Origin: a virus
Lineage: Duplodnaviria; Heunggongvirae; Uroviricota; Caudoviricetes
Virus record (IMG/VR): IMGVR_UViG_3300028888_001839
Span: 185,001 to 249,000 of that record
DNA: 64,000 nt
Direction: 5' to 3' (one strand)
Shown here: piece after piece, positions 3,641 to 21,299 of the stretch
How the letters are laid out: every line of letters begins with the position of its first letter
How positions within the stretch are numbered: the stretch's first letter is position 1
Translations under genes and position numbers: made by a program
The notes under the pieces: generated by a model
The model's input: the letters and a program-made list of their open reading frames with translations, nothing else
Told to the model about the DNA's origin: nothing
Databases searched by the model: none

Positions 3641-3643
3641 TCC

Positions 3644-3934
3644 TTGTCTATGGCGAATTCGGTACAGATAAAGTACCATGGGGAAGTTCTCTGCTGCCTT
3701 GACCAGACGGAGGTCAAGGCAGTGGAGCCCTATGTGTTCTGCAAGCCTCCTATCAGAAACGTGTTCCAGCGGATAGCCGATTGGACGTATCGGTTTGTGA
3801 CAGGAAAGCGAACAAACGTTATGGTTGGGGATAACGGAAGTTCGTGCGACTCTGGCACGAAAATCCTATTCAAGGACGGTACTTGGATGCGCTTGAAGAT
3901 TCCCTTTATGGAGTTTGTGAATGGCTACTGCTAA
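3644..3934 (+). CDS. hypothetical small protein
   Basis: 96 aa ORF in a co-directional gene string; no recognisable motif. Confidence 0.3.
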   Translation: MSMANSVQIKYHGEVLCCLDQTEVKAVEPYVFCKPPIRNVFQRIADWTYRFVTGKRTNVMVGDNGSSCDSGTKILFKDGTWMRLKIPFMEFVNGYC

Positions 3935-4631
3935 TGAGACAACGCATAAGGAAATCTGGAAATCTCCTCCCTCTCTCAATTGTCAGAGGGTGGAGGTTTC
4001 TAATTTAGGGAGGGTAAGGACACTCCCTTATTATAGGAGTTTCATTCGGCTTGGCGTTCCCGTAACAAATAAGTGTAATGAAAAAATCCTCAAGTGCGGA
4101 AAGGATTCCAGAGGGAGGAGATTCATCTGCGGAGGAACCATAAAGAAGTCTCTATATGGGAAGGGGTTCTTGGTCCATCGGCTAGTAGCCGAATGCTTTG
4201 TTCCAAATCCAAAGCCAAAAGAGTATGACATGGTATTCTTCAAAGATGGGGATGTGGGAAACTGCAAGGCATCAAATCTCGAATGGGGTTGTAGGAGGGA
4301 TAGGAATTTGATGGCAAGGGGCAATCGTGCAATCTATAAGATTCTAGTCATCTCTAACGGGAAAAAGATTGGAGAATATATTGGATGTGGAGAAACAGGT
4401 AGAGCCCTAGGGTGTACAAAACAGTCGGTTCATGCTGCGATAATGAATGGCACTCTATGCAAAGGATATGAACTAGTAGCATTGAAGGGAGATGGAGACA
4501 AGCCATATCATTCGCTCGAAGAGGCAAGAAAAGCTGATAGCTTCAAGCCTATAAGCAATGGGTTCTTGATTCCAGACGAAATATATTCCAAGAAGGATGT
4601 TGAGATACCGATGGAGGCTGTGTTCAAGTGA
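3921..4631 (+). CDS. HNH homing endonuclease (HNH_3-like)
   Basis: 236 aa; NLEWGCRRDRN and HRLVAECFVPNP motifs typical of phage HNH_3 endonucleases. Confidence 0.6.
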   Translation: MATANETTHKEIWKSPPSLNCQRVEVSNLGRVRTLPYYRSFIRLGVPVTNKCNEKILKCGKDSRGRRFICGGTIKKSLYGKGFLVHRLVAECFVPNPKPKEYDMVFFKDGDVGNCKASNLEWGCRRDRNLMARGNRAIYKILVISNGKKIGEYIGCGETGRALGCTKQSVHAAIMNGTLCKGYELVALKGDGDKPYHSLEEARKADSFKPISNGFLIPDEIYSKKDVEIPMEAVFK

Positions 4632-5559: not shown

Positions 5560-7662
5560 ATGTTCGGATTATTCCATAAGGGCAGCAAGAAAGACCAGCC
5601 GAAATACAAGAAGCATGGGAGGTCGGAGGGTGAGCCATCTGCTATCCAGAAGATGAGGAAGGCTATCGAGGACGGCATAGGGTTCTCTCCTGATTCTAGT
5701 TCTGGAGAGTTCCCCGTCATGGATGAATCCGCCATGACAGATGAGGAGTACACTGAGGCAATCGACAAGTTGTTTCCAGTTAGACTTACAGACTTCTTCA
5801 AGGCGGTGCAGGATGGGGCTGACCCATTTCCAATAAAAACCGACATGGTTGATATGAGCGTCCCTACAATGGACGATGTTACTGGAGGCAAGGGAGATGG
5901 TGTGCCAACGGGGAAGCCGTCCGTTCTTCCGAGGAACATAAGCGGGAATCTTCCGGGAGCCGTTCCGAGAAGTTCTCAGAGGTGTTATCCGCCACGGCAG
6001 GGGCTTCATGCTGGGTTAGAGGGTGGCGGATTTGCGATGCTTCCCGATCCTCTTCTACGCTTCCCGATAAACCCAAGAGTTCTCAAACACTTCCAATCGC
6101 GTATTTGGATTACATATACGGGATGCGCAATCATAGCAACACATGAGTTTGTGAATCGTGCCTGCATGATTCCAGCAGAAGATGCCATGGCGCATGGTTA
6201 CAAGGTCGTCTGCTCATCTACAAAGCATGAACATAGCAATGAGCATGATGCAGCGGAAGCAGATTTCCTGACGGAGATTAAGAAAGCCGCCGATAGGATG
6301 GGGTTGAACGAAGCATGTATTCGCTTAAATTACAAGAAGAAGGTGTTTGGAGTTGGTGTAGCAATTCCATGGGTAAGGTTTAGGGATGATTATAGATCCC
6401 CATCAGACAAGTCAGGTAAAACCCCATATAGCTATGCAGACCCTTACGACCCTAAAGCCATAAAACCAGGTTCGTTCAAAGGATTTGCTGTCATAGACCC
6501 ACACTGGCTTACTTACCAGTGGGACAAGGACAGCCGAACCAATCCACTCTCCCCGCACTTCCTAGAGCCGACATGGATAAAGGTAGGAGAAGAGAGAGTC
6601 CATCGCTCATGGGTGATAAGGAAAATAAACTCAGAGTTGCCAGACATCTTCAAGCCGGTGTATCTCTATGGCGGGCTGTCTTTGACGCAGATGATTTATG
6701 AAAGAGTGTGGGCCGCAGACAAGCTAGCAAATGAAGCACCGCTTCTAGCAATGACAAAGAGGCTTCTGATTGCAGACGGAAACCTCGAGCAGTTGCAGTC
6801 AGACCCGGCCCGTACAAACAAGTTCTTCAATGCCATAAACTTCTTCCGCGACAACTTCTCCATATTCGTGAAGAAGCCGTCTTCGAACGTGACGCAGTTG
6901 GATACGAACCTGTCGGAACTCACACCTCTTACGATGTCGCAGTATCAGTTGGTTGCTGCCATTGCACAGATTCCTGTCACTAAGTTGCTGAAAAACGTTC
7001 CTTCTGGCCTGCAGGCAACAGGGCAATACGAATGGGACGACTATGCCCAATCTCTAAAGGCTATCCAGAATAACGACTATACTCCTTTGTGCAAGATGTT
7101 CTACGAACTTTATTGTGCGTCGAACTATCCGGACAAGGATGACATGAAGCTAGACATAGAATGGAATCCTATTGACGTGCCGAAGGAGTCCGAAGTGGCA
7201 CAGATGAGTTCGCAGACGGCACAGTATGTTGCTCACCTTATCAATACCGGACTCATTGACATTGCGGAAGGTCGTGCGATGCTCCGCAAGACAAATCTCC
7301 CAGTTTTCCAGACGATTCCGACAGACATTCCAGAAATCCTCACCAAGATAGAGGAAGCAAAAGACCCTTCAGCCCAACAAGGAGGAATGCCTGGAATGCC
7401 GGGAGGGATGGACGGCGGCATGGGAGGCGGAATCCCTGCTCAGGGAGGAGAACAGCCCCCACCAGAACTGCCGCCAGAAGTCCAGAAGAACGACGAAATT
7501 TTCAAGAGCGTGATGAGGGACTTCCTTAAGAAGACTGGGCAGGAAGTACCAGCACCAGCCGAGCAGCAGCCACAGGCACAGCAGGGGCAACAACCTCAAG
7601 CACATGCCCAGCAGCCCCAACAAGCCCCCTCGGCACAACCACAACCTCCACCTAGAGGGTAG
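5560..7662 (+). CDS. putative portal protein with Q/P/G-rich low-complexity C-terminal tail
   Basis: 700 aa; size and position fit a portal protein; C-terminus is GMPGMPGGMDGG then QQPQ repeats. Family assignment is tentative. Confidence 0.35.
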   Translation: MFGLFHKGSKKDQPKYKKHGRSEGEPSAIQKMRKAIEDGIGFSPDSSSGEFPVMDESAMTDEEYTEAIDKLFPVRLTDFFKAVQDGADPFPIKTDMVDMSVPTMDDVTGGKGDGVPTGKPSVLPRNISGNLPGAVPRSSQRCYPPRQGLHAGLEGGGFAMLPDPLLRFPINPRVLKHFQSRIWITYTGCAIIATHEFVNRACMIPAEDAMAHGYKVVCSSTKHEHSNEHDAAEADFLTEIKKAADRMGLNEACIRLNYKKKVFGVGVAIPWVRFRDDYRSPSDKSGKTPYSYADPYDPKAIKPGSFKGFAVIDPHWLTYQWDKDSRTNPLSPHFLEPTWIKVGEERVHRSWVIRKINSELPDIFKPVYLYGGLSLTQMIYERVWAADKLANEAPLLAMTKRLLIADGNLEQLQSDPARTNKFFNAINFFRDNFSIFVKKPSSNVTQLDTNLSELTPLTMSQYQLVAAIAQIPVTKLLKNVPSGLQATGQYEWDDYAQSLKAIQNNDYTPLCKMFYELYCASNYPDKDDMKLDIEWNPIDVPKESEVAQMSSQTAQYVAHLINTGLIDIAEGRAMLRKTNLPVFQTIPTDIPEILTKIEEAKDPSAQQGGMPGMPGGMDGGMGGGIPAQGGEQPPPELPPEVQKNDEIFKSVMRDFLKKTGQEVPAPAEQQPQAQQGQQPQAHAQQPQQAPSAQPQPPPRG

Positions 7663-8645: not shown

Positions 8646-8673
8646 AAAATCTTTCTTTTTATTCTACCCCCCA

Positions 8674-8702
8674 TTGAAAGCCGTCTGACTCTATGGTATA
8701 CT
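8674..8702 (+). promoter_or_regulatory. sigma70-type promoter with extended -10 (TTGAAA-17-TGgTATACT), copy 1 of a conserved promoter family
   Basis: TTGAAA at 8674-8679, TG-N-TATACT at 8694-8702; the same motif CCATTGAAAGCCG...TGGTATA recurs at 27901 and 35029. Confidence 0.55.
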
Positions 8703-8793
8703 ATACGGCGTTTCGAGGAACAAGGCCCTGAACCTAGATGGGCAAGAAAGAGATTCCTCCTAATGGTTCTTTGACAATTGGACGTTGAATTTC

Positions 8794-8836
8794 GGTAGCC
8801 GCCGAATGGGGTTGGTTCGAGTCCCCACGGCTACCA
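8794..8836 (+). ncRNA. tRNA-like minihelix (acceptor stem + T-arm only)
   Basis: GGTAGCC ... GGGGTTGGTTCGAGTCCCCAC ... GGCTACC-A: perfect 7-bp acceptor-like stem enclosing a TPsiC-like arm, no D or anticodon arm. Confidence 0.4.
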
Positions 8837-9774
8837 CAAGTTTCTGTGGAGCAATCGGCAGAGTAACATCGGCCGTACCACATAAAGACCTTCCTTCTAT
8901 GTCTTTGAGGGAATTTAACCAGGGGCCAAGAATAGTGGCAAAAGACTTCGATTTCCCAATCTTACATAATCAGTTAGGTTGGGGGAGCGGTGTGTGAAGC
9001 GCAGACTGCCAGAAAAAATTAACAACTAATAAAACGTCTGGTCGTGGAGTGCAGTCGGACGATAAACAAAAAGGCGAGGAGGCGATAGCATTTGCTATGT
9101 CAATGAACCGCTAAAGCATACAACATCTAGTTGTAGGGCTACTCACACTCTGGAAAAGAGCCAATCGTACTACCGCTCTATTCTGTTTGCTGCCCGATTC
9201 CTAATCAGTCTAACGGGTAGAGTGGGTGTGAGTCTGCTGGGGAGTAGCCTTCCATGATTGTTAGGCGAATCTTGGCGGAGGAAGCCCACAAGTGTTGTGA
9301 CAAGGTAGCCGTTGCCAAAAACATCTAAACGGCAGTTAGTCATCTAAGGAGGCTGTTGGAAACAAGGCAAGGATGGATGCTGGCTGGAGTGGCAGCCAAT
9401 ATGTTATCGTCTATGCGTCGGTCACATGAGGTAAGACGATAGCCAAGAGGTGTCAGGCATCTCACCATCTCAATTTCAATGGGTCTAAATCGGTTTCGAC
9501 GTGGTGACGGCAGTTGCATATGCAGGACGGTGATGTATCCTACACCGCAACGACGGATGCGAAACTCAAATGCCAACGATTAAGAACAATCTTCTGGGAG
9601 GGGCATCTTCCAGTTGGTGAGGTTCATGTAAGACCAAGAACTCCATAGAGGGGTTAGTGGCATGAACCGCTTGCAGCCAAGAATCCCGACAGCCTTAGCG
9701 TTGGGAGTATGTCAAAAGCAGCAGGAATGAACATTGCACTCTGCGGTGCCTGTTGCTTTCAATTTCAGCGAAGC

Positions 9775-9850
9775 GGGGATGTAGCTCAGATGGCAGAGCG
9801 ATTCCTTTACACGGAATATGTCGGCGGTTCGATTCCGTCCGTCCCTACCA
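9775..9850 (+). tRNA. tRNA-Val (anticodon TAC)
   Basis: Cloverleaf: acceptor GGGGATG/CGTCCCT, D GCTC/GAGC, anticodon stem ATTCC/GGAAT with loop TTTACAC, T-loop TTCGATT, CCA encoded. Confidence 0.8.
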
Positions 9851-9853
9851 GAA

Positions 9854-9931
9854 GAGGCTATAGCTCAATGGACAGAGCGCTACCCTCCGAAGGTAGGTCT
9901 TGTGTGGGTTCGATTCTCACTAGCCTCACCA
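9854..9931 (+). tRNA. tRNA-Arg (anticodon CCG)
   Basis: Acceptor GAGGCTA/TAGCCTC, anticodon stem CTACC/GGTAG with loop CTCCGAA, T-loop TTCGATT, CCA encoded. Confidence 0.75.
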
Positions 9932-9933
9932 AT

Positions 9934-10010
9934 GCGGGTGTAGCTCAATCGGACAGAGCGGCAGTTTCCTAAACTGTAGGTTGCTGGTTCGATCCCAGTC
10001 TCCCGCACCA
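9934..10010 (+). tRNA. tRNA-Arg (anticodon CCT)
   Basis: Acceptor GCGGGTG/CTCCCGC (one mismatch), anticodon stem GCAGT/ACTGT with loop TTCCTAA, T-loop TTCGATC, CCA encoded. Confidence 0.7.
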
Positions 10011-10019
10011 TTTCCAAGA

Positions 10020-10094
10020 GGGGCTATAGCTCAACGGATAGAGCAGTTGCCTTCTAAGCTACTGATGTGGTTTCGATTACCGCTAGCCCCACCA
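10020..10094 (+). tRNA. tRNA-Arg (anticodon TCT)
   Basis: Acceptor GGGGCTA/TAGCCCC, loop CTTCTAA, T-loop TTCGATT, CCA encoded. Confidence 0.7.
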
Positions 10095-10099
10095 ATTTT

Positions 10100-10187
10100 G
10101 CCAAGGTCGCATAGTCTGGCTGATTGCACGGGTTTTGTAAACCCGCTCCGAAAGGACACAGCGGTTCAAATCCGCTCCTTGGCTCCA
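10100..10187 (+). tRNA. type II (long variable arm) tRNA; anticodon ambiguous: TGT in a 7-nt loop, or GTA (Tyr) if the loop is 9 nt
   Basis: Acceptor GCCAAGG/CCTTGGC, 3-bp D stem with long D loop, variable hairpin TCC-GAAA-GGA, T-arm AGCGG/CCGCT, discriminator T, CCA encoded; anticodon arm CGGGT-TTTGTAA-ACCCG. Confidence 0.6.
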
Positions 10188-10195
10188 TGAGACTT

Positions 10196-10270
10196 GCCTC
10201 CGTAGGTGTAATGGCAAACCGCCACTTTCGTAAAGTGGATTTCCTAGTTCGAGTCTAGGCGGGGGCTCCA
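10196..10270 (+). tRNA. tRNA-Thr (anticodon CGT)
   Basis: Acceptor GCCTCCG/CGGGGGC, anticodon stem CCACT/AGTGG with loop TTCGTAA, CCA encoded. Confidence 0.75.
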
Positions 10271-10273
10271 GAT

Positions 10274-10346
10274 GCCCCCTTAGTTCAGTGGTAGAACGCC
10301 ATCTTGGTAAGATGGAGGTCGTCGGTTCGTTTCCGACAGGGGGCTT
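10274..10346 (+). tRNA. tRNA-Thr (anticodon GGT)
   Basis: Acceptor GCCCCCT/AGGGGGC, anticodon stem CCATC/GATGG with loop TTGGTAA, T-loop TTCGTTT; CCA not encoded. Confidence 0.75.
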
Positions 10347-10349
10347 TAA

Positions 10350-10436
10350 GCGGAGTGTAGACCGTAGCCTGGTACCGGGTCTGCTTTGGGAGCAGATGAG
10401 AAATCCTCGGGGGTTCGAATCCCTCCACTCCGACCA
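10350..10436 (+). tRNA. tRNA-like, type-II-like with variable hairpin; anticodon loop TTTGGGA (TGG?) and irregular D-arm
   Basis: Acceptor CGGAGTG/CACTCCG, T-arm GGGGG-TTCGAAT-CCCTC, CCA encoded, variable hairpin GAG-AAATC-CTC; D region does not fold canonically. Confidence 0.45.
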
Positions 10437-10441
10437 TTTTC

Positions 10442-10518
10442 GGACCCTTAGCTCAATTGGTTAGAGCATCTGGCCCATACCCAGACGGTTGTAGGATCGT
10501 TCCCTACAGGGTCCACCA
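10442..10518 (+). tRNA. tRNA with CAT anticodon (Met/fMet/Ile2), unusual C33
   Basis: Perfect acceptor GGACCCT/AGGGTCC, D GCTC/GAGC, anticodon stem TCTGG/CCAGA with loop CCCATAC (C at position 33), CCA encoded. Confidence 0.7.
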
Positions 10519-10531
10519 AAACGATTTCAAT

Positions 10532-10605
10532 GGGCCGATAGTTCAACGGTAGAATGCTTCTCCGGCAGAGAAGAGATGCAGGTTCAATTTCTGCCGTGTC
10601 CACCA
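10532..10605 (+). tRNA. tRNA-like, possibly Ala (GGC); acceptor stem has 3 mismatches, possible pseudogene
   Basis: D and T arms fold (T-arm GCAGG-TTCAATT-TCTGC), anticodon arm CTTCT-CCGGCAG-AGAAG, but acceptor GGGCCGA versus CGTGTCC pairs at only 4 of 7 positions. Confidence 0.4.
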
Positions 10606-10748
10606 TTTCCAGGGCGGTTGTGACAAAATCAGTGTTTATCATTTCCCAATTCCAATGATTTCGTTGGGGTGAATAATTGGGGAAAGAAAGCGTGATGGGC
10701 ATTAATGGAAATACGATGTCCTTCTTGACAATCGTCCTTTATTTTCAT

Positions 10749-10823
10749 GGGCCGGTAGCACAACAGTAGTGCAACTCCTTTGCAAGGAGTAGGTTGTCCG
10801 TGCGAATCGGATTCGGTCCACCA
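10749..10823 (+). tRNA. tRNA-Ala (anticodon TGC)
   Basis: Acceptor GGGCCGG/TCGGTCC (two G-U pairs), anticodon stem ACTCC/GGAGT with loop TTTGCAA, T-loop TGCGAAT, CCA encoded. Confidence 0.7.
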
Positions 10824-10831
10824 ATTTTAAT

Positions 10832-10910
10832 GAGGCATGTAGCTTAAGATTAATGAGCGGGCGGTGATGAGCCGCCTATGTGTCGGTGCGAATCCGTCCA
10901 TGCTTCACCA
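10832..10910 (+). tRNA. tRNA with non-canonical anticodon loop TGATGAG (no U33; GAT/Ile-like or ATG) and a 3-nt acceptor-D connector
   Basis: Acceptor GAGGCAT/ATGCTTC, anticodon stem GGCGG/CCGCC, T-loop TGCGAAT, CCA encoded. Confidence 0.5.
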
Positions 10911-10918
10911 ATTTTATC

Positions 10919-10992
10919 GCACTGATGATGTAGCGGTAACATAAGGGCTTCCCAAGCCTTTCTCACGGGTTCGAGTCCCGTTCAGTGCTCCA
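10919..10992 (+). tRNA. tRNA-Gly (anticodon CCC)
   Basis: Acceptor GCACTGA/TCAGTGC, D ATGT/ACAT, anticodon loop TTCCCAA, T-arm ACGGG-TTCGAGT-CCCGT, CCA encoded. Confidence 0.75.
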
Positions 10993-11083
10993 TTTAGAAG
11001 CCTCTCCGCCAGAGTCCCGATCTGTCGGTCTGTATAAGGGAACGAGGTAGCCCCCGCTGAAAGCAGTAGGATAAGGGGCAAAT

Positions 11084-11159
11084 GCGGACTTAGTACAGTT
11101 GGTAGTACGTATCCTTGCCAAGGATGAGGTCACGGGTTCGAGTCCCGTAGTTCGCTCCA
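11084..11159 (+). tRNA. tRNA-Gly (anticodon GCC)
   Basis: Acceptor GCGGACT/AGTTCGC, D GTAC/GTAC, anticodon stem TATCC/GGATG with loop TTGCCAA, T-arm ACGGG-TTCGAGT-CCCGT, CCA encoded. Confidence 0.8.
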
Positions 11160-11163
11160 TTTT

Positions 11164-11238
11164 GCAAGATTGGCAGAGAAGTTATGCGCCACCCTTCCAA
11201 GGTGGTTTACGCCGATGCGAGTTCGGCATCTTGCTCCA
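11164..11238 (+). tRNA. tRNA-Gly (anticodon TCC)
   Basis: Acceptor GCAAGAT/ATCTTGC, anticodon stem CCACC/GGTGG with loop CTTCCAA, T-arm GCCGA-TGCGAGT-TCGGC, CCA encoded. Confidence 0.7.
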
Positions 11239-11495
11239 TCTTGAAAAGCGTCCCGAATGCGTCGGCCCAGAAGTACAATGGGTGCAAGGGCTCGCAAGCA
11301 ACGGCAGAAGATTCGGGTGCTCGTTCCGCATAGGACGTGAAGGTCCACCCAAGAAGGGGCGAACTCGGTTGCAAGTGTTATCAAGTTCTGCAACAACGGA
11401 TAGGCGAGAATCTGACTTGCAGGCGCAAGTGCAACCCAAAGGTTCGGTGAGGCGCAACACGGGAAAGGGCGCATGTGATTTTTTAGTGGCATACG
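11239..11495 (+). ncRNA. GC-rich ~250-nt structured element after the tRNA array, ending in a U-tract; candidate small RNA
   Basis: Roughly 55% GC versus ~45% for the window; no credible ORF; ends ...GGGCGCATGTGATTTTTTAG. Confidence 0.3.
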
Positions 11496-11599
11496 AGGTT
11501 CCTATTCAATAACTTGTTTGGGTATAAGTCAAATACCTCCCGCCACTTCTCCATTTGTGAGACATAGAGAGTTCCTATTCAATCGATCATACGACGAAG

Positions 11600-11619
11600 C
11601 ACGGGGCAACAACCCTGTG
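11600..11619 (+). other. acceptor-like hairpin CACGGGG-CAACAA-CCCTGTG inside a repeat unit
   Basis: 7-bp stem with one G-U pair, 6-nt loop; same architecture as the junctions of the permuted tRNA-like elements. Confidence 0.3.
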
Positions 11620-11677
11620 TAGTTTCTACTCTCCGTCTCATTTCCCTTTCAGGGGCAGAGGAAGTTCCTATTGATTT

Positions 11678-11753
11678 GAGAAGCTAGCTCAATGGAAGAG
11701 CGCCTTGGAGGAATCCAAGGAGATTACGGGTTCGAGTCCCGTGCCTTTCACCA
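11678..11753 (+). tRNA. tRNA-like gene with full cloverleaf but non-canonical 6/8-nt anticodon loop (CCTTGG-AGGAAT-CCAAGG)
   Basis: Acceptor GAGAAGC/GCCTTTC (one mismatch), D GCTC-AATGGAA-GAGC, T-arm ACGGG-TTCGAGT-CCCGT, CCA encoded; no U33. Confidence 0.45.
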
Positions 11754-11802
11754 ATACTTTCCGCCCCGCTTTTTTGCGGCACAGAATGTTCCTATAAAAA
11801 TG

Positions 11803-11880
11803 CTTGGTAAGCAGGAGGTCGTGGGTTCAAATCCCACTGCGGAGGGCTTGCACCTCCGTATAGCTCAGTCTGGTAGAGCG
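11803..11880 (+). ncRNA. Permuted/split tRNA-like element: 3' half (anticodon loop 3' side TTGGTAA, T-arm GTGGG-TTCAAAT-CCCAC, acceptor 3' strand) then linker then 5' half (acceptor 5' strand + D-arm TAGCTCAGTCTGGTAGAGC)
   Basis: 3' strand TGCGGAGG is complementary to the downstream CCTCCGTA with one G-U pair, forming an acceptor hairpin closed by a GCTTGCA loop. Confidence 0.45.
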
Positions 11881-12057
11881 CCTAAATAATACATTCCGCC
11901 GCTTTTCCAATTTCAATGTGGCAAAAGACGTTCCTATTACTTTGGTTGGTCTTCTATCCTCCAAAGGGATGGAAGATGGGGTTCAAATCCCCGTTAATAC
12001 GTCTCGCCACTGATTCTTCAGAGGCATATTGAGTTCCTATAAAAAGACACGCAGAGT

Positions 12058-12120
12058 GATTGGGTTCGACTCCCAACGACGGGGCAAAACCCGTTGTAGC
12101 TCAACGGTAGAGCATTTGCC
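12058..12120 (+). ncRNA. Second permuted/split tRNA-like element: T-arm TTGGG-TTCGACT-CCCAA + acceptor 3' CGACGGG, linker GCAAAA, acceptor 5' CCCGTTG + D-arm TAGCTCAACGGTAGAGC
   Basis: 7/7 complementarity (one G-U) between the 3' acceptor strand and the downstream 5' acceptor strand; canonical D-arm follows. Confidence 0.45.
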
Positions 12121-12549
12121 TTACAATACTCATCGCCTCACATTTTTCTGGAGCATTGGAAGTTCCTATTAGCATCTGCGGATGCAATTGACTGTAAATC
12201 AATCCAAATACTTCCCGCTCCTTTCCCTTTTCAGGTTGCATAATGGAGTTCCTATCAAACCCTTGGACCTGGGGACAATCAGGTCCACCATGAAAAATCG
12301 TACTCCCCGCAACCATAACAAAACAAAGTCGCATAGGCGGTTCCTATAATGGCGAAAGCCAACTTGCTGATAACGAGAAAATACTGCCCGCGACAAACTC
12401 TTGACCGCATATGGGGTTCCTATTACGCTTTCTCCACATTTCGGAGGATTCTCCACCTTTCGGGGAATCTAGCAATACCCTTCGCGGAACTTTTCCGTCC
12501 GTGTGGACGGTCTAAACGACAACAAAAACCAACCAAAGGGAAAACGACA

Positions 12550-14436
12550 ATGCAAATGCACACTGCACTGATCGACTACTTCAAGAGGGGGTTCATCGCC
12601 TCCGACAAGGCGGATAACCGTGACTTCGCCGCCATCAACAAGAAGTCCGTTAAGCTCGGGTACATCATCAGTCCCGAATGCTGCAACAAGTTCGTGGACG
12701 AGTGGCTTGACACCCTCACTGCGAATTACAATTCCACTTTCTACAAGGAGTGGAACGATGTGATTTCCAAGTCACGATACGAGATTTTCGTTGACCAGAT
12801 TCGCCACTATGCCTCTACATACGGAAAGGTGCTTGAGGGCAAGGAGGTAGAGGGGAACGGATGGCTTCCGAACGACGGAGGCATCGTCCCTCGCTTTGAA
12901 GACCTCAAGGTCATTGAGCCTATCACGAACGACGAAATGGCCACCAAGTGCTTTGAGGTTCTTAAGGCTGGCATCGCCCTCAAGGATAGCACGATGAAGG
13001 TCATGTGCGATTTCTGGTATGCAATTAGGGTTGACGGAATCAACTGGAAGAAGAATGATTTGTCTGAAGCACTTTCTCTTGTGAAGAACAAGGAGGCTAT
13101 GGCATACCTCTCGCAGAAGATGAAGATTCTTCCTGCAGACGAGTTCGGGATGCTCCGTTGCATTGCCCTTGCTTATGTTGGCAAGCCTGCTCTCATCAAG
13201 AGCCGTGCAACGATTGCGACAATCAAGAAGAAGTCCGAAGAGAGCGGTTTCCGCTCTCCGCTCCTTGACCTTGAGGATGTTCAGATTGAGCGCCTTTCCC
13301 GCATCTTCCTCCGCTTCAAGCCAATCTTCCTCGCTATGAAGGGCGGTGAGAAGAAGGACAGGAAGGTTGCTGGAATCGTGAATCGTCTCCGCCGTCTTGC
13401 GGAGAAGAACCACAAGCCTTTCAAGATTGGGTTCTGGGAGAACATCATAAAGGAAGCACAGCCAGTGGATGAAGTCAAGAAGCGCCTTGGCGAACTTGAC
13501 AACTTCCGCAAGGTTCGTCTTATGATGCTCTGCAAGGAGCGCATGGACTTCCCGACAACTACCGGTGTGTTCAACATTCGGAACGGGAAGCAGTTCGTCC
13601 GCGAGCAGTATTCTCCGAAGTACGACAAGAACTGGATTGCACGTCTTTACTTCCTCCTTGAGGAATCGCTTTGCGAGTCCATCAAGGGCAAGTCCTGCAA
13701 GGTCCGTCTGCCGGAGCATTACGAACTTGTACTTCCGACATCGGAGAAGAATTTCGTTGGAAACTTCCCCTACGGAACATCTTTTGGGATGACGAAGAAC
13801 AATGTCGTTGGCATCTACTGGCGTAACGAATGGGGTACGAGGGACTACGATCTCTCTATGACCGACCTGCGCGGAAATCGTATCGGATGGAACTCGTCAT
13901 GGTACAATGGGACTCGGAACGGAGACAACAACTCTGTAATCTACTCTGGTGACATCACCAATGCGAATCCAGAGGCTGCTGAACTCCTCTTCATGAGGAA
14001 CGATGCTCCTGACGGAATTGTGATGGTGAACCAGTATTGGGGTGAGCCTAAGTCTAAGTTCCGCTTCTTCTTCGCCAATGAGTGCCTTGATGTTAACCAC
14101 ATGAAGAACCATATGGTAGACCCGAACAACATTCGGTTTGATACCATGATGGAACATGAGGCTGATGAGACAGGTCGGCAGATGACTATCGGTATGATGC
14201 TCGATAATCGCTTCTACTTGATGCAGATGGGGACGGGCAATCGCCGTGTTTCAACAGGCAAGTATGCCCCTGTCATCATCGAAGGTCTGAAGAAGAAAGC
14301 CAAGTGCTTCATCGGGCTGAAGGAAATCCTCTATCGTGCGGGGTTTGAGGTTCTTGACAAGGATTCGGAAGAGAAGCCAGATATCGACTTTACGAATCTC
14401 GAGAAGGACACTCTTATCAACCTTCTTGCGAAGTAG
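12550..14436 (+). CDS. hypothetical protein (628 aa) with atypical, C-ending, GC-rich codon usage
   Basis: Long ORF; the first convincing ATG with an upstream AAGGGAAAA is at 12550. The ORF-track start at 12349 would read through the repeat array. Codon usage (AAG, CTC, TTC, GAC, ATC) differs from neighbouring genes. Confidence 0.6.
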   Translation: MQMHTALIDYFKRGFIASDKADNRDFAAINKKSVKLGYIISPECCNKFVDEWLDTLTANYNSTFYKEWNDVISKSRYEIFVDQIRHYASTYGKVLEGKEVEGNGWLPNDGGIVPRFEDLKVIEPITNDEMATKCFEVLKAGIALKDSTMKVMCDFWYAIRVDGINWKKNDLSEALSLVKNKEAMAYLSQKMKILPADEFGMLRCIALAYVGKPALIKSRATIATIKKKSEESGFRSPLLDLEDVQIERLSRIFLRFKPIFLAMKGGEKKDRKVAGIVNRLRRLAEKNHKPFKIGFWENIIKEAQPVDEVKKRLGELDNFRKVRLMMLCKERMDFPTTTGVFNIRNGKQFVREQYSPKYDKNWIARLYFLLEESLCESIKGKSCKVRLPEHYELVLPTSEKNFVGNFPYGTSFGMTKNNVVGIYWRNEWGTRDYDLSMTDLRGNRIGWNSSWYNGTRNGDNNSVIYSGDITNANPEAAELLFMRNDAPDGIVMVNQYWGEPKSKFRFFFANECLDVNHMKNHMVDPNNIRFDTMMEHEADETGRQMTIGMMLDNRFYLMQMGTGNRRVSTGKYAPVIIEGLKKKAKCFIGLKEILYRAGFEVLDKDSEEKPDIDFTNLEKDTLINLLAK

Positions 14437-14450
14437 GGTGACAAAGTTTT

Positions 14451-14528
14451 GCATACAGGGGTGGTAGGTTCCACCGGCCGAGAGGTTGTGCGACGGCACT
14501 TGATTGGGTTCGATTCCCAACGTATGCA
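14451..14528 (+). tRNA. tRNA-like element; canonical T-arm and 6-bp acceptor, non-canonical core
   Basis: GCATACA ... TTGGG-TTCGATT-CCCAA CGTATGC-A; interior has a GGTGG-TAGGTT-CCACC hairpin, a GGCCGAGAGG motif and a GTGC-GACG-GCAC hairpin. Confidence 0.35.
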
Positions 14529-16930
14529 ATTTCATTGTGAATCGACCGAGGCGAAAAAGTCCTCCTCGGAGTAAACTCAGGCTGCGAAGGGTGTTCCGTC
14601 TGTCTTACGGAATGTCGGTGATTGGGAGTCCGTGTTCACAAAGAATCCCATGAGGCAAGAGTTGGTGAAGAGCAGAGTAGCTAATGCGAAAATCTTCATT
14701 GACATAGACTTATTTACTTTGCTAGGTCGTTCCCCTCGACCTCCAATGGCAAATGGGAAAATATGGGGACAACTCAGTTCAGAAGAACCTCCTAAGTCAG
14801 CACACAGGATTGGGAAACCATAAAAGATGCTGATAGCCAAAGGGTAGCCTTGAAAGGCGAAATCATGCGACCCCAAAAGAGGCCACTGTCACTGTCTTTG
14901 ACTGTGAGTAGCAGTACCGAGGCATCGGGAAAATACGGCTGCTAAAGCTCTCCGCAAGAGGGATAGACTTAACAATTTCTTCTGTGCGTAAATTCAACAG
15001 TCAGAATCCCCGCCGATTCCATTTTCGTATGAAGATGCGATAAGCGAGGAGTTGCTGGTGCGAATCCAGCCGCACAGACCATTTCCTTCCGTGCAGAGAG
15101 GGAGTAAAACCTTGACGGCTAGACAATCGAATGACGAGTCTTTTGTGGACAGAACGGGATGATGTCATGACTGACCCTCGTTTCAGTTCGGTTTGAGTTT
15201 CAACGACCAAGGCCGTCCCGAAACAATCAATGTGATAATCTAGGAGAGAGCGCACTTCTAGGAATAGACTGGGGAAGTCCTCGTAGCTATTGGACAGCCC
15301 TGAAACATGGCACCTGTCAGTAGTCCAGTCGGATGCACGGAAGATTTGATGATTTCCGCTCATGAGCACAATTGGCGAACTTCCTTTCCTCTGTCAGCGC
15401 AGTAGGAGGATAAGAGCCTACGATAAGCATGTAAATCGAACAGTAACCCGATTTAGAGCGGGGGCAACCTTCGCATGCGGCGGTCATTGCAAATGTCACG
15501 GCAATAAGGGAGAAGGAAGAGCTCAAATCCTTTCCCCAGTGGCCCTATTTCCGCTATGGCATTTTTTGCTATGGCAACCAATGAAGAGAAAAGCGACCTC
15601 GAGTTGTATCTTGCTGACGAACCGTATATGCCTGACTTGGCTGAAGAAGACTATACTGCTGCCGCAGTCGTGAAGCCTGCAAGTTTTAGCAATGTCAATG
15701 TAACGGAAGAAATGTTCAAAAGCAAAGTAGATGAGGCATTCCGAAAGAGGATGGCTAAGACCTTATCTCCCAAGGCGATTGAGGAATGCATATTAAGTCC
15801 AGTATATGCAAGATGCATACAGAACAAGTTCAAGGAAGTGCAGAATGACAACAACAATCTTTCCCTGTCGCAGGAGAAGGTATTGAGGGGACATATCGCT
15901 TCGTTGATGCACTGTCTCTTTTTGGTGTTTAGTTGATTTAGATTGCGGGCTGGTGTAAAAGCAGCATAATAGGCTCATACCCTTTAGGAAGCCGTGCGAT
16001 TCGGTTGCCCGCTACCAATTTTCGCTAGGATGCGGAGAGAAAAACTCCCAGTCTACACAACTCTACTCTGGTGCTGCAGAGGTTAGGCAGACTAGCGAAA
16101 TCATTTTCCGCCAAGTGAGCGATGGACTATGGAAGATTAAGGTATCGGCCCTTAACTCACTAGTTGAGTCCCGTGTGTCGGTCTGACTAATTGACGTGAA
16201 GCAAGATTCTTGGCGGACACTTTTTCGATGGAGTCCACATGGTTGTGTCATAGGTTGATGGCGATGTTGGCGGAAAAGCCGCTCCTGACGGTTGGGGAAT
16301 GCCTCCTAACGAAACAGCCCCGACCCGAAAAAAGCATACCTTGGAGAGCACGGCAGGCGGTCGAGTATCTTCTGTAACACAAGAAGGGTTAACTTAGTTC
16401 CGTCCGCGAAAGTAAATCCAGTAGTCATCGCATAGAGGTGGGGAAAACACTTTCCGTTGACCTTCGTAGTCCCAGTCCGATTCTGGGAGGACTCCGCAAT
16501 TTAGGAAGGGTCCATGCCTAATGTGCTGAACGACAAAATCGCTCCCGAGAATGTGGAGATGAGAGTAATCAATCGGGCATTTCGCTCCGTATAGAGAGCG
16601 GCTTCCTAATGTGCGAAAGCACAAAACTCTAGTGTTCTTTGCGGGGTTCCGACCTACCCCTCTTCCAGAGGGTTGAGTGTCGGGTTGAGCGAGCTAGAGG
16701 CGGTATTCGGCAAAAAACACTAGCCGACCCTGTCATAGGATGCGGAGGTAGGGGGAGCTCACCCGAAACCGAATCGGCAGCCCCGCTCCATTTCTCTTTC
16801 CATTCATCGGTGCAAACGTTTGAGTTGGTGGATACATATGACAATTCCTTTTCGGAGACGGGTGATTGGTTTTAGGCTTGCTATTGTCTAATTGCACCTA
16901 CGGCGGCCGATTCAATTTATAGGCGGAGAT

Positions 16931-16968
16931 GTGGGTTCGAGCCCCACCATGCTACCCGAAAGGGTAGC
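16931..16968 (+). other. T-arm-like motif GTGGG-TTCGAGC-CCCAC followed by GCTACCC-GAAA-GGGTAGC hairpin
   Basis: Perfect 7-bp stem with GAAA tetraloop; resembles the GGTAGCC/T-arm minihelix at 8794. Lies ~70 bp upstream of a strong promoter. Confidence 0.3.
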
Positions 16969-17034
16969 CTCGTCTAATAGGAAGGATACCGCCTCCCATC
17001 TAAAAAATTCAACGTCCAATTGTTGTCACCCCCC

Positions 17035-17064
17035 TTTACAGCCATGCCAATTCTGTGGTATAAT
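17035..17064 (+). promoter_or_regulatory. sigma70-type promoter TTTACA-18-TGgTATAAT
   Basis: TTTACA 17035-17040, TATAAT 17059-17064 with upstream TG. Confidence 0.5.
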
Positions 17065-17096
17065 TTTCTTTGCTTTCGGACAGGAAGGACAAGACG

Positions 17097-17432
17097 ATGC
17101 AACGAACGAAAAAGACAGCAAAGCCTATATCCCAAAAGGCATATCCATGGCGGAAGAACAAGAAGAAATGGACTGACACTCTCTTTGAAAGCAAGCTTCT
17201 TTCCAATCCATCTTTGATGACTAATGCAGAACTTGCAAAGGCATTAGAAGAGCATCAGGAGTGGCGAAGAGGGGAAGGTAAATACTTCTGGAAAGATGAC
17301 CCCATAAAGGAGAAATCAGAGACTGATGCTCCATTCTCTCCCGCTATCCTATCCAATCTGATTATGGAGACGATTGCTCGTCTTAAGATTGGCGGAGACT
17401 TGGCAATGGGGAGATTCAAGGATCATGTTTGA
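17097..17432 (+). CDS. hypothetical small basic protein
   Basis: ORF 17070-17432; the first ATG with an RBS (GGAAGGA) is at 17097. Confidence 0.4.
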   Translation: MQRTKKTAKPISQKAYPWRKNKKKWTDTLFESKLLSNPSLMTNAELAKALEEHQEWRRGEGKYFWKDDPIKEKSETDAPFSPAILSNLIMETIARLKIGGDLAMGRFKDHV

Positions 17433-18222
17433 AGGAATCAACAACCCATTAATTCTCGCTGCTACTAGCGATATTCATGGACACTTAGAGGGCATACAGG
17501 AAGTATGCTTTTCGAGAAATGTTGACATACTTGTAATAGCAGGAGACATCGAGCCAGCAGACCTCTTTACTAGCAAGCCTTACTGGTTTGAGCGCAAGTT
17601 CTTCCCGCTTATATCGAAACTAAATTGTGAAGTGGTAGCGATTCCTGGCAATCACGACTTCTATCTGTCTAGCAAGTATAAAGCAATCAAGAGAGGCGAA
17701 TACTCACGTGTTCCAAAGAACTTCCATCTTCTGATTGACGAGGAAGTGACGATAAAAGGCATAAGGTTCTATGGCACTCCTTGGGTGCCATACATAAACG
17801 GAAGATGGTGCTTTGAAGCTGATGATGAAGACCTTGCAGACAGGTTTTTGCAGATGCCTGCAAGAGTAGATGTTCTCATAACACATTCTCCGCCTCTAAT
17901 GAAGTATCATGAGGCTGACATGAGTCTAGACTATCCTCCTGAATATCGTCGTCACTTCGGGAGCAATAGTCTTGCTAGAGTGATTGATGCTAAAGCACCT
18001 AGGATGGTTGTCTTTGGCCATATCCATAGCGGCAACCATAGATGCACTACGCTGCATGCGAATCTCGAAAACTCAATAGTCCATATGTGGAACGTATCCC
18101 GAGTGAACGAAGAATACAATATCGCATATAAGATAAAATTGCTAGAACTAAACCCAAACAGTATAAGGGAGATGTCGTTTAATGAGCCATTTCCGACAGG
18201 AAAGGACAAGGTGGTGGGGTAA
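17425..18222 (+). CDS. calcineurin-like metallophosphoesterase
   Basis: DIHGH, GDIEP, GNHD and GHIH motifs; ATG at 17425 overlaps the upstream stop (ATGTTTGA). Confidence 0.65.
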   Translation: MFEGINNPLILAATSDIHGHLEGIQEVCFSRNVDILVIAGDIEPADLFTSKPYWFERKFFPLISKLNCEVVAIPGNHDFYLSSKYKAIKRGEYSRVPKNFHLLIDEEVTIKGIRFYGTPWVPYINGRWCFEADDEDLADRFLQMPARVDVLITHSPPLMKYHEADMSLDYPPEYRRHFGSNSLARVIDAKAPRMVVFGHIHSGNHRCTTLHANLENSIVHMWNVSRVNEEYNIAYKIKLLELNPNSIREMSFNEPFPTGKDKVVG

Positions 18223-20081: not shown

Positions 20082-21299
20082 ATGAAAAGATTCTTTGCTT
20101 CAGTTCTCCCCGCATTTCTGCTTGCTGTTTCTGTCGGACAGATTTATGCTTTCACTAACTTCTCTTCGGAGATAGCATCTTACATAGGGGAGACGCAGCA
20201 GGCGGTGCAGTTCGCATTCTCATTGGGGATATTCTTTCTAGGGATGGGGGCTGCATTCTTCGGTAAGATTGTGGAGAAGAACATTCATCGTTCCACCATG
20301 ATAGGAATGGCTCTATTCATAACGGGACTAGCCGTAACCTCTGTCGGAATATACTTCAAGTCACTCTGGTCTATCTATCTTGGCTATGGTTTTCTTCTAG
20401 GGCTAGGGACTGGAGTTATCTATATAACCCCAGTGAAGACGATGATGCTATGGTTCCCAGACAATAAGGCCATCGCCGCCGCAGTCCCAATCATTTCATT
20501 TGGGTTGGGTTCTACTCTTTCGACAATCATATACAAAGGGTGTTGCGGAATCGGAGGACTTTATGACTTGTTCAATGTAGCAACCGACAGCAAGGGAATG
20601 TTTTTCGTGATGATGTCTTTTGCCGTCATCTACCTTGTCACGATGGGTATTGCATCTACGATGCTTCGGAAGCCAGATGCAGCCAATAATGCAGACATAG
20701 TTAATCCGAAAATCAGTTCTTTCTCTTATGTTCGCTTGCTAGGTGATAGGTTCTTTCTGCAGTCTTGGCTTTTTATGTTCCTTAACATCTCTGCTGGTCT
20801 CTGTCTAATCCCATTGGCAAAGCAGATGATGGATGCCCCAGACATAGGTTATCGTGCATCTACTATCACCTTGGTGATAGGGCTATGTGGACTAATGAAT
20901 GGCGGAGGTAGGTTCTTCTTTGCATGGTGGAGCGATAGACTGACTATTAGGAAGCATATCCTAATTTATATATCTCTTATCTCATTCTTGACGATGGCGG
21001 TTAGCCTTAAGTTCGCCGTGGTAATAGGCATAGCCCTACTCATCATAAATGCCTGTTATGGTGCGGGATTCTCCGTCATACCGGGTATTTTGGCAGACCA
21101 CTATGGCATGTCGGACATATCTAAGATCCACGGAGCGGTTCTGTCTGCATGGGGAGTGGCAGGCCTTGTCGGGAATCAGGCGGCACTCTATGTTGGAAGC
21201 AATTTTGGAGGGTATAAGGCCGTCATAAGTATGCTTATCATTGTCTATTTGTTGAATATGCTAAACTCTGGGTATATGCTAAAGAAGCACGAAAGATGA
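20082..21299 (+). CDS. MFS-type membrane transporter (oxalate/formate-antiporter-like)
   Basis: 405 aa with about 12 predicted hydrophobic helices; MFS motif-A-like WWSDRLTIRK between helices. Confidence 0.55.
   Translation: MKRFFASVLPAFLLAVSVGQIYAFTNFSSEIASYIGETQQAVQFAFSLGIFFLGMGAAFFGKIVEKNIHRSTMIGMALFITGLAVTSVGIYFKSLWSIYLGYGFLLGLGTGVIYITPVKTMMLWFPDNKAIAAAVPIISFGLGSTLSTIIYKGCCGIGGLYDLFNVATDSKGMFFVMMSFAVIYLVTMGIASTMLRKPDAANNADIVNPKISSFSYVRLLGDRFFLQSWLFMFLNISAGLCLIPLAKQMMDAPDIGYRASTITLVIGLCGLMNGGGRFFFAWWSDRLTIRKHILIYISLISFLTMAVSLKFAVVIGIALLIINACYGAGFSVIPGILADHYGMSDISKIHGAVLSAWGVAGLVGNQAALYVGSNFGGYKAVISMLIIVYLLNMLNSGYMLKKHER

Follow-up and report, generated by a model that had tools for sequence, protein, structure and literature searches.

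A tandem array of structured RNAs with tRNA-mimic heads, linked to an unannotated protein family in large phages

What is the repeat-punctuated segment that follows a tRNA gene array in the genome of a tailed phage: a set of rearranged tRNA genes, the debris of such genes, or something else? We addressed this question in a stretch of 64,000 nt (hereafter, the window) of the Caudoviricetes virus record IMGVR_UViG_3300028888_001839 (positions 185,001 to 249,000 of that record). A preliminary description of the window had reported ten copies of a bipartite repeat separating tRNA-like fragments, some of them in circularly permuted order. The number and spacing of the copies were confirmed by counting: the GTTCCTAT box occurs ten times on the plus strand between positions 11498 and 12423, at intervals of 73–142 nt. 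The whole window contains 12 copies, compared with 1.9 expected, and none of 100 shuffled sequences reached this number. A 3' box of the form (A)AUAC-N4-C-G(C/U) is present in all ten units, in degenerate form in unit 2 (UCUAC) and unit 8 (CGUAC).

The boxes, which had been viewed as a repeat lying between units, are arranged differently. The GTTCCTAT box of each unit pairs with the AATAC..CGC sequence that closes the same unit, and the supposed bipartite repeat is composed of the 3' strand of one unit, a pyrimidine-rich linker of 8–15 nt and the 5' strand of the following unit. The 4–6 nt located 5' of each GTTCCTAT are complementary to the 4–6 nt located 3' of the next AATAC box (GAGGT/ACCTC, GAGAGT/ACTCTC, GAATGT/ACATTC, AGACGT/ACGTCT, GGAAGT/ACTTCC and GGCGGT/ACTGCC), and the nucleotides preceding GCAWA pair with those following CGC. 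Positions 11485–12487 are a tandem array of ten small structured RNA genes of 63–127 nt each with one common scaffold. The scaffold comprises an outer helix of 4–7 bp whose last pair is C-G, an asymmetric internal loop with AWA(N) on the 5' side and a single C on the 3' side, an inner helix of 5–6 bp closing in GU/AC, and a conserved junction (5' UCCUAU(U/A), 3' (A)AAU) above which a variable head sits. The conserved sequence of its 5' strand is GUUCCUAU, which bears the UCC bulge. When the units were folded singly by minimum free energy (MFE), the same architecture was obtained in all ten, with z-scores of -2.4 to -4.9 relative to shuffled sequence.

Another important question is whether this stem is preserved in evolution or could reflect chance complementarity. 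Dozens of loci of the family were gathered by a pattern scan of IMG/VR and by searches with the protein encoded downstream of the array. A strict unit scanner detected 52 units in the loci examined first, compared with zero in shuffled sequence; in total, it delivered 132 non-redundant units (median length, 56 nt). To avoid circularity, units were also defined by the boxes only (GTTCCTA...WTAC-N4-CG), with no requirement for pairing, which yielded 92 units from 44 loci. Each of the four variable inner pairs was formed in 93–96% of these units, compared with 48–69% when partners were swapped; all four were formed together in 89% compared with 14%, and all four pairs of the outer helix in 70% compared with 11%. 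Pair counting in 88 trimmed scaffolds gave 91.9% of cells paired versus 69.0% in shuffles (a level reached by none of 500) and 271 double-change cells versus 78, while in slid registers pairing amounted to only 33–47%. Thus, the checks suggested at the outset (Rfam covariance models, alignment of the units, and phage and metagenome searches) revealed both covariation and homologous loci. The scenario that had been named as a refutation, decayed pseudogenes with chance complementarity, is excluded by this covariation and by conservation in distant phages. The idea that the boxes are signals holds insofar as they are functional and conserved elsewhere, although they have to be recast as a covarying two-helix closing stem.

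The strand to which the structure belongs can be read from the scaffold itself. G.U pairs outnumber A.C mismatches (27 versus 11) and the 5' strands are purine-rich; therefore, the structure belongs to the plus-strand RNA. The nucleotides UUCCUA, UAC and the lone C before CG are almost invariant and do not covary, which is the pattern expected of a site of protein or tertiary contact. A pairing of UAU with AWU in the junction was dropped since mutual information shows no covariation there, and these positions are treated as conserved in sequence. Searches of Rfam 15 at permissive thresholds with the window array, minimal-unit loci and cyanophage loci left the scaffold unmatched and returned only tRNA and sub-threshold matches to YrlA, and BLAST of the array against GenBank phages returned matches to tRNA pieces only. 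The position of the 3' box directly next to the CCA of unit 3 prompted us to consider small ribozymes (hammerhead, twister, pistol, hatchet and HDV-like), which gave no Rfam match; an HDV-like fold needs a double pseudoknot, whereas the scaffold is a simple nested two-helix stem.

What, then, does the scaffold display? All ten units lie on the plus strand, and the heads of three of them resemble most of a tRNA. Unit 3 (11652–11767; z = -3.05) carries a tRNA-like cloverleaf of normal order (11678–11753), the abnormal anticodon loop of which had been noticed before and is real: the Rfam tRNA model scores it at 46.4 bits, and ARAGORN calls an undetermined tRNA with an 8-nt loop and a 4-base anticodon, 'ggaa'. 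It also has a G3:U70 pair and an ACCA end that continues into the AAUAC box. Units 4 (11776–11902; z = -2.40) and 6 (12021–12139; z = -2.94) carry permuted tRNA mimics. Their T-arm, acceptor hairpin and D-arm segments, likewise reported earlier and found again here, partially match the Rfam YrlA model (11813–11885, model positions 23–87, 37.0 bits; 12060–12113, model positions 31–81, 24.9 bits). The head of unit 4 runs from an anticodon-like hairpin (loop UUGGUAA) through the T-arm and a closed 8-bp acceptor hairpin to the D-arm, and a residual anticodon stem, AGG/CCU, joins it to the scaffold. In unit 6, the order is the 3' strand of the anticodon stem, T-arm, closed acceptor hairpin, D-arm and the 5' strand of the anticodon stem, and the head ends in CUUACAA, continuing into the AAUAC box. 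RNAalifold was run, without any structure, on an input of nine permuted units that represent six or more phage lineages (the window, the loci L058, L006 and L057, the cultured cyanophage S-CRM01 and two Fibrobacter-associated contigs). Both scaffold helices, the T-arm, the closed acceptor hairpin and the D-arm were recovered, with compensatory change in 21 of the 26 pairs of the consensus, so the circularly permuted order of the two window segments is real and supported by covariation. A further permuted-tRNA unit, in locus L026, is enlarged by more than 200 inserted nucleotides, located within or behind the acceptor loop.

The suggestion that such segments are permuted or split tRNA genes is therefore upheld as to the order of their parts and not as to their function. 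Functional tRNA genes are unlikely because the point at which the scaffold enters the tRNA body varies (positions 26/27 in L057, 29/30 in unit 4 and 38/39 in unit 6), because normal-order heads have defective anticodon arms (in another lineage, the arm of such a head is cut down to a 3-nt loop), and because most heads of the family are ~ 20 nt long, unstructured and devoid of a tRNA body. The permuted and tRNA-like heads are mimics, not decoders. A tandem tRNA duplication is a plausible evolutionary origin of the permuted heads.

The other units of the window display smaller elements. Unit 1 (11485–11547; outer helix AGUGGC/GCCACU, inner helix GAGGU/ACCUC, both present in the MFE fold; z = -2.47) has a short head with UUUGGGU. 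The hairpin at 11600–11619, which had been singled out previously, exists and forms, as a 7–8-bp stem, the head of unit 2 (11557–11641; z = -3.93) together with a small hairpin. Unit 5 (11918–12010; z = -4.94) contains a long hairpin and a T-arm-like hairpin (GGGG UUCAAAU CCCC), and unit 7 (12150–12221; z = -3.74) a hairpin and an anticodon-arm-like hairpin (AUUGA CUGUAAA UCAAU). Unit 8 (12234–12314; z = -3.55) has a minihelix of 7–9 bp followed by ACCAUGAAA; unit 9 (12328–12394; z = -2.80) has a GAAA-loop hairpin and an anticodon-arm-like hairpin (CUUG CUGAUAA CGAG); and unit 10 (12405–12487; z = -2.59), with a short outer helix, CCGC/GCGG, has two hairpins with the 7-nt loops ACAUUUC and ACCUUUC. 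In this phage, tRNAs or pieces of them are imitated by most heads, which range from a whole cloverleaf to a minihelix with an ACCA tail. Across the family, most heads are 17–27 nt long, A/U-rich and unstructured. Nevertheless, tRNA-like elements exceed chance: hairpins with a 7-nt loop, resembling an anticodon arm or T-arm, occur in 37 of the 132 heads compared with 14.3 ± 3.4 in shuffles, and the loop CUGUUAA was found in at least five lineages. A central UGG is present in 25 of 83 short heads versus 5.6 expected (z = 8.9), usually inside WUUGGR or AUGGM (for example, L006 at 10544, L033 at 2920, L042 at 406 and L104 at 3639). This UGG could mimic the GG of the D-loop or could pair with the NCCA 3' ends of tRNAs.

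These data raise the question of whether the array is a solitary RNA element or part of a larger module. The gene that follows it (12550–14436, plus strand) starts 63 nt past unit 10 and encodes a protein of 628 aa, referred to below as the partner protein. A homologue of this protein, full length and with 27–94% identity, adjoins the array in every locus retrieved by RNA that has a real array. Conversely, the protein sequence on its own was used to collect 64 non-redundant loci. Strict units were densest in the 900 nt preceding the gene on its own strand (1.43 per kb); the density fell to 0.24 per kb just past the gene, 0.08 per kb elsewhere on that strand and 0.04 per kb on the other one. 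At least one strict upstream unit was present in 43 of the 64 loci, and in several zero-scoring loci degenerate single units were seen by eye. In loci L086, L099, L109, L115, L009, L142 and L185, the array comes shortly after the gene, an arrangement that speaks against an exclusive role as a 5' leader. No consistent third gene was found near the module, the next best family being present in at most 13 of 130 loci.

The partner protein consists of an all-helical N-terminal domain (residues ~ 1–380) and a beta-sandwich of the TerD fold (~ 384–560), and conserved members of its family are ~ 620 aa long. It matched nothing real in Pfam, PHROGs, NCBIfam, PADLOC or the PDB sequences; eight diverse family members found no Pfam family at E ≤ 1, the TerD model included, and the only weak matches were a local one to RING_SCO0854 over the TerD-like region and one to SspC. 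No nuclease-like motif or fold was found in it. Compared with the TerD proteins of Ter clusters, it shares the beta-sandwich fold but leaves the Pfam TerD model unmatched, and here the fold shares a polypeptide with a helical domain of ~ 380 aa that has no assigned fold family, outside any Ter operon. We know of no reported RNA link for TerD. The family comprises at least 1398 clusters at 90% identity, all unnamed and many located on contigs of 100–670 kb. The window copy is identical or almost identical to, and falls into the same 90%-identity cluster as, a 'hypothetical protein' of Prevotella metagenome-assembled genomes (MAGs; contigs of ~ 250–285 kb), and in the genome collection all 50 of 50 matches were on MAG contigs. 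Named homologues occur in the Synechococcus phages S-CRM01 (g174) and S-CBWM1 (gp22), in both cases inside tRNA clusters, and in the gut phage Phass-1. In S-CRM01 (HQ615693), g174 is preceded by five units and followed by one; these six units occupy positions ~ 132120–132570 and ~ 134425–134485, and a permuted tRNA mimic is among them. The module is thus spread among large phages of gut and rumen Bacteroidota, Fibrobacter, cyanobacteria and other hosts.

One additional piece of evidence comes from the rate at which the array changes. L058 is a close relative with 94% identity in the partner protein, and its DNA is 90–96% identical to that of the window across the tRNA array, the gene and the flanks. 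When window positions 11286–12518 were compared with L058 positions 2910–3970, only three of the ten units aligned, at 77–85% identity and in changed order. Orthologues that could be compared preserve form over sequence: that of unit 4 is 85% identical, that of unit 2 retains its hairpin via compensatory changes, that of unit 7 has the loop CUGUUAA instead of CUGUAAA (GUA to GUU), and that of unit 8 has a different stem and an unchanged ACCAUGAAA. The array turns over far faster than its flanks, as is typical of conflict-driven selection. The tRNA gene array upstream (9775–11238, plus strand) contains 14 genes according to ARAGORN and 13 at the gathering threshold of the Rfam tRNA model; 13 Rfam-passing genes are accompanied by two called by ARAGORN only. 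The 246 nt from the last tRNA to unit 1 are not unusually structured (z = -0.58), and the tRNA array and the RNA array are probably carried on one transcript.

Is such an organization without precedent in phages, as had been supposed? The permuted topology is not, since it is already that of the YrlA Y RNAs (RF02553) of bacteria and phages (PMC4201824). The scaffold shares with the Y RNAs of the Ro60 system (PMC4201824) a two-helix end stem, asymmetric loops, conserved nucleotides on the 5' strand and a variable head. Units 4 and 6 and their relatives share with YrlA the order of the head: residual anticodon stem, T-arm, closed acceptor hairpin and D-arm. In both systems, tandem paralogous RNAs are located beside the gene of a presumed partner, and both occur in phages. 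However, the partial YrlA matches of units 4 and 6 lie well below the gathering threshold of 69 bits, the S-CRM01 unit matches the full-length model but at 35.9 bits only, and these sub-threshold scores stem mostly from the tRNA-like part. A tRNA-like domain inside the equivalent of the anticodon stem is present in units 4 and 6, as well as in their relatives from six or more lineages, and absent from the other eight units of the window; most members of the family lack a tRNA-like domain, and the arrays reach 10–11 units. The Ro60 motif GNCGAAN0-1G is absent from the 5' strand, its two copies lying inside the heads of units 2 and 9, and the metazoan Y-RNA motif GGUCCGA is absent from the array. 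A Ro60/TROVE partner was sought in the window and not found: no TROVE gene lies by the array, and the adjacent protein, a novel helical domain joined to a TerD fold, is not TROVE/vWA by sequence profile or fold. The module is therefore one that works like a Y-RNA system and is not a member of the YrlA/Ro60 family, as every membership criterion fails except head topology.

By analogy with Ro60 and its Y RNAs, and with confidence slightly better than even, we favor the explanation that the small RNAs and the adjacent protein form a ribonucleoprotein (RNP), with the scaffold as its protein-binding part and the heads as mimics of tRNA. A long transcript running from the tRNA array through the downstream gene would be cut into unit RNAs at the pyrimidine-rich linkers. 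The invariant, non-covarying nucleotides of the scaffold would be the binding site of the protein encoded downstream, so that the stem formed by the two ends of the RNA holds the protein and the head gives specificity. The particles would then engage factors that recognize tRNAs, plausibly as decoys or adaptors in tRNA conflict or in tRNA surveillance and repair. A more specific version is possible, and we put it forward tentatively, judging it less likely to be right than wrong: a two-component phage RNP in which a scaffold of ~ 35 nt displays fast-evolving heads with tRNA elements as decoys for host tRNA-targeting nucleases and tRNA-modifying enzymes. Such heads, mimicking the anticodon arm, the T-arm, the acceptor-CCA end, the elbow or the whole tRNA body, might trap, titrate or redirect host immune nucleases that target tRNAs as well as modifying enzymes. 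A decoy array of this kind would resemble anti-CRISPR RNAs in logic but be directed at tRNA-based defense.

Several observations weigh against the RNP explanation. The binding of the protein is something we infer from conserved adjacency and from analogy; the protein is unlike Ro60/TROVE or any known RNA-binding domain, and TerD domains are not, to our knowledge, RNA binders. Most heads of the family are the short, unstructured, A/U-rich type, which makes tRNA mimicry an elaboration of some lineages and not a defining trait. A few loci with the partner protein have no unit at all. A tRNA gene lies within 4 kb in only 26 of 133 loci, and tight linkage to tRNA clusters was accordingly dropped as a general rule, although it holds in the window, S-CRM01, S-CBWM1 and some others. 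Finally, in some phages, single units stand just before the start codon, where a cis-regulatory role fits equally well.

This last point leads to the alternative that the hairpins are a cis-acting leader, i.e., operators in the 5' untranslated region bound by the encoded protein or a host factor for autoregulation, with the heads as mere passengers. The concentration of units in the 900 nt upstream on the same strand, the single unit found 20–60 nt ahead of the start codon in several phages and the lack of a promoter or terminator consensus between the array and the gene (a consensus scan that is in itself uninformative) agree with a leader. Nevertheless, we regard it as unlikely: arrays of up to 10–11 units with covarying tRNA-like heads are hard to explain as operators, some arrays follow the gene, and compensatory changes maintain the head types in different phages; hence, selection acts on the heads themselves. 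Doubtful too, to a somewhat greater degree, is the possibility that the units are cassettes from which an endonuclease and a ligase excise and circularize the heads to give functional permuted tRNAs or small circular RNAs. The closing stem does juxtapose the 5' and 3' ends of every unit, and an Rnl-type RNA ligase gene is present in the window. If ...CUUACAA were joined to GCAGA... in unit 6, the complete anticodon arm of tRNA-Val(UAC) would be restored, and a link between CCU and GC in unit 4 would restore a Thr(GGU) arm. The circularly permuted tRNA genes of Cyanidioschyzon merolae and the split ones of Nanoarchaeum are similar to units 4 and 6 in having the 3' half before the 5' half and a short linker, and leader-trailer pairing is common to both. 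However, their bulge-helix-bulge, with 3-nt bulges on opposite strands separated by 4 bp, is absent here: AWA and UCC are both on the 5' strand with a 6-bp helix between them, and the 3' strand has a single C. The position of the junction varies, which would place the necessary cuts at unequal distances from the boxes, and the anticodon arms either lack parts or are split by the scaffold, those of normal-order heads having a loop of 8 or 3 nt. The host is bacterial and has no splicing endonuclease, the ligase gene is 16 kb distant and is not a conserved neighbor of the locus, and the same scaffold bears non-tRNA heads of ~ 20 nt in most units, which are unable to form tRNAs. Ligation to a full canonical tRNA is formally possible for units 4 and 6 with unequal cut distances and impossible for most units.

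The short heads could instead serve as guides, the scaffold loading the protein and the single-stranded head pairing with a target such as the NCCA end of a tRNA via UGG, a pairing with precedents in T-box leaders and RNase P RNA. The enrichment of a central UGG in short heads and the hypervariability of the array among close relatives speak for this reading. We consider it improbable, since identical head sequences recur in unrelated phages, unlike strain-specific guides, many heads are structured mimics in the tRNA sense rather than antisense, UGG is equally readable as D-loop mimicry, and the partner protein lacks a nuclease-like motif or fold. Tandem units with conserved flanks, variable inserts and a content that differs between close relatives are also known from CRISPR arrays and the ToxI RNAs of type III toxin-antitoxin systems. 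In the array described here, however, the flanks pair across the insert and not within a repeat, the helices covary and are not identical, and the inserts are structured mimics; the near-identical direct repeats of CRISPR are missing, as the parts flanking the boxes differ from unit to unit and covary with the far side of the insert, and no cas domains or toxN-like genes were found among the scanned window open reading frames (ORFs). At the level of DNA, the units might be folded recombination sites similar to attC or miniature transposable elements whose terminal inverted repeats give the stems. Conserved structure over variable stem sequence, extrahelical bases and a center of variable length do recall attC, and unit order is shuffled between relatives. 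Very little probability attaches to such elements, given linkers of 8–15 nt with no cassette ORFs, no integrase or transposase conserved at the locus, the confinement of units to the strand and vicinity of one gene, heads that are tRNA-like on the plus strand only, and the excess of G.U over A.C. The integron features (ORF cassettes, intI and the R boxes GTTRRRY/RYYYAAC) are lacking as well: GTTCCTA is unlike GTTRRRY, and there are neither ORFs nor an integrase. The sequence GAAGTTCCTATT (11661–11673 and 12159–12171) matches 12 of the 13 nt of a FLP/FRT half-site, a resemblance that would point to a recombinase; we judge this to be chance because the 4–6 nt upstream vary and covary with the 3' strand. 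Decayed tRNA pseudogenes or duplication debris have next to no probability. The position of the array directly after the tRNA genes and the resemblance of the heads of units 4 and 6 to phage tRNA-Thr and tRNA-Val would fit such an origin, but strong covariation, the conservation of the family among phages that infect Bacteroidota or cyanobacteria and among many metagenomic lineages, and linkage to one protein family contradict it. Both the DNA-element and the pseudogene explanations are effectively excluded.

The tRNA-like heads also have parallels among other tRNA-shaped modules that do not decode, namely, the tRNA-like domain of tmRNA, the 3' tRNA-like structures of plant viruses and mascRNA. 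The alanine-accepting domain of tmRNA has G3:U70 and ACCA, as does unit 3. What distinguishes the mimics described here is that they are embedded in a scaffold, arranged in arrays and genetically linked to one protein.

Several features of the surroundings deserve mention in their own right. Within the upstream tRNA array, the Rfam tRNA model detects a tRNA at 10532–10602 (38.7 bits, with acceptor mismatches) that ARAGORN missed, and two ARAGORN calls, tRNA-Pro at 10351–10436 (86 nt) and tRNA-His 'atg' at 10832–10910 (79 nt), are unsupported by that model; this array may contain further aberrant tRNA-like genes. At 14450–14528 (plus strand), 14 nt past the stop codon of the partner gene, there is a weak tRNA-like element that has no scaffold, with an acceptor stem GCAUAC/GUAUGC and a T-arm UUGGG-UUCGAUU-CCCAA. 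It was not called by ARAGORN, and its sole Rfam match is tRNA-Sec at 23 bits. The regions 14437–17373 (~ 2.9 kb) and 8646–9774 (~ 1.1 kb) contain no plus-strand ORFs longer than ~ 140 aa in the standard code. Stop-codon recoding was considered and rejected, as reassignment of any single stop gave no convincing plus-strand ORF (the longest being 159 aa). These flanks are 83–96% conserved in L058, Rfam finds nothing in them, and they may hold further noncoding RNAs or small genes. Similar ORF-free, structured-looking stretches near the module in tRNA clusters were seen in L137 (S-CRM01) at 1780–2460 and 6110–6500 and in L026 on the minus strand at ~ 4160–4530.

Farther away, the window encodes a RecT-family recombinase (1679–3640, plus strand; 653 aa) whose LAGLIDADG homing-endonuclease domain (residues ~ 436–490) suggests an intein or an inserted homing endonuclease, with a YqaJ exonuclease gene (410–1636) adjoining it, and a TnpB-like gene (33020–34228, plus strand) with OrfB_IS605 and Cas12f-like TNB domains. 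A calcineurin-like metallophosphoesterase (17374–18222) and the Rnl-type RNA ligase, which has a PHA02142 OB-fold domain (28783–30039), plausibly constitute a set for RNA end healing and sealing, and they are not conserved near the module in other phages. An SPFH/flotillin protein (31193–32821) is also encoded. The genes of a Major Facilitator Superfamily transporter (20082–21299) and the anaerobic ribonucleotide reductase NrdD (22377–24623) fit a large phage of an anaerobic gut or rumen host, in agreement with the association with Prevotella MAGs.

How new is this module? We found no description of the pair of RNA and protein in Rfam 15, protein family libraries or the searchable literature. 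A large IMG/VR screen for structured RNAs (PMC10690425) yielded 8,495 candidates without names, and the pair may be one of them. What is new is the combination of Y-RNA-like scaffolded tRNA mimics with an unrelated partner and an unrelated scaffold, and there is a substantial chance that it represents a distinct RNA-decoy system. The fast turnover of the array and the display of separate tRNA recognition elements make these RNAs candidates for a part in the tRNA conflict between phage and host. The phage countermeasures in this conflict that are known to us are phage tRNAs and repair enzymes, and we know of no RNA decoys among them. The module is present in the cultured Synechococcus phages S-CRM01 and S-CBWM1 and is hence directly testable, and it accounts for the 'pseudo-tRNA' and odd tRNA calls by phage tRNA clusters. 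Thus, a strongly covarying structured-RNA family new to Rfam 15 is defined together with its likely protein partner from an unannotated family. The principle of the Y RNAs, in which a protein-binding stem carries a tRNA-mimic head, would thereby extend to a partner unrelated to Ro60, which suggests that RNA scaffolds displaying tRNA mimics evolved more than once.

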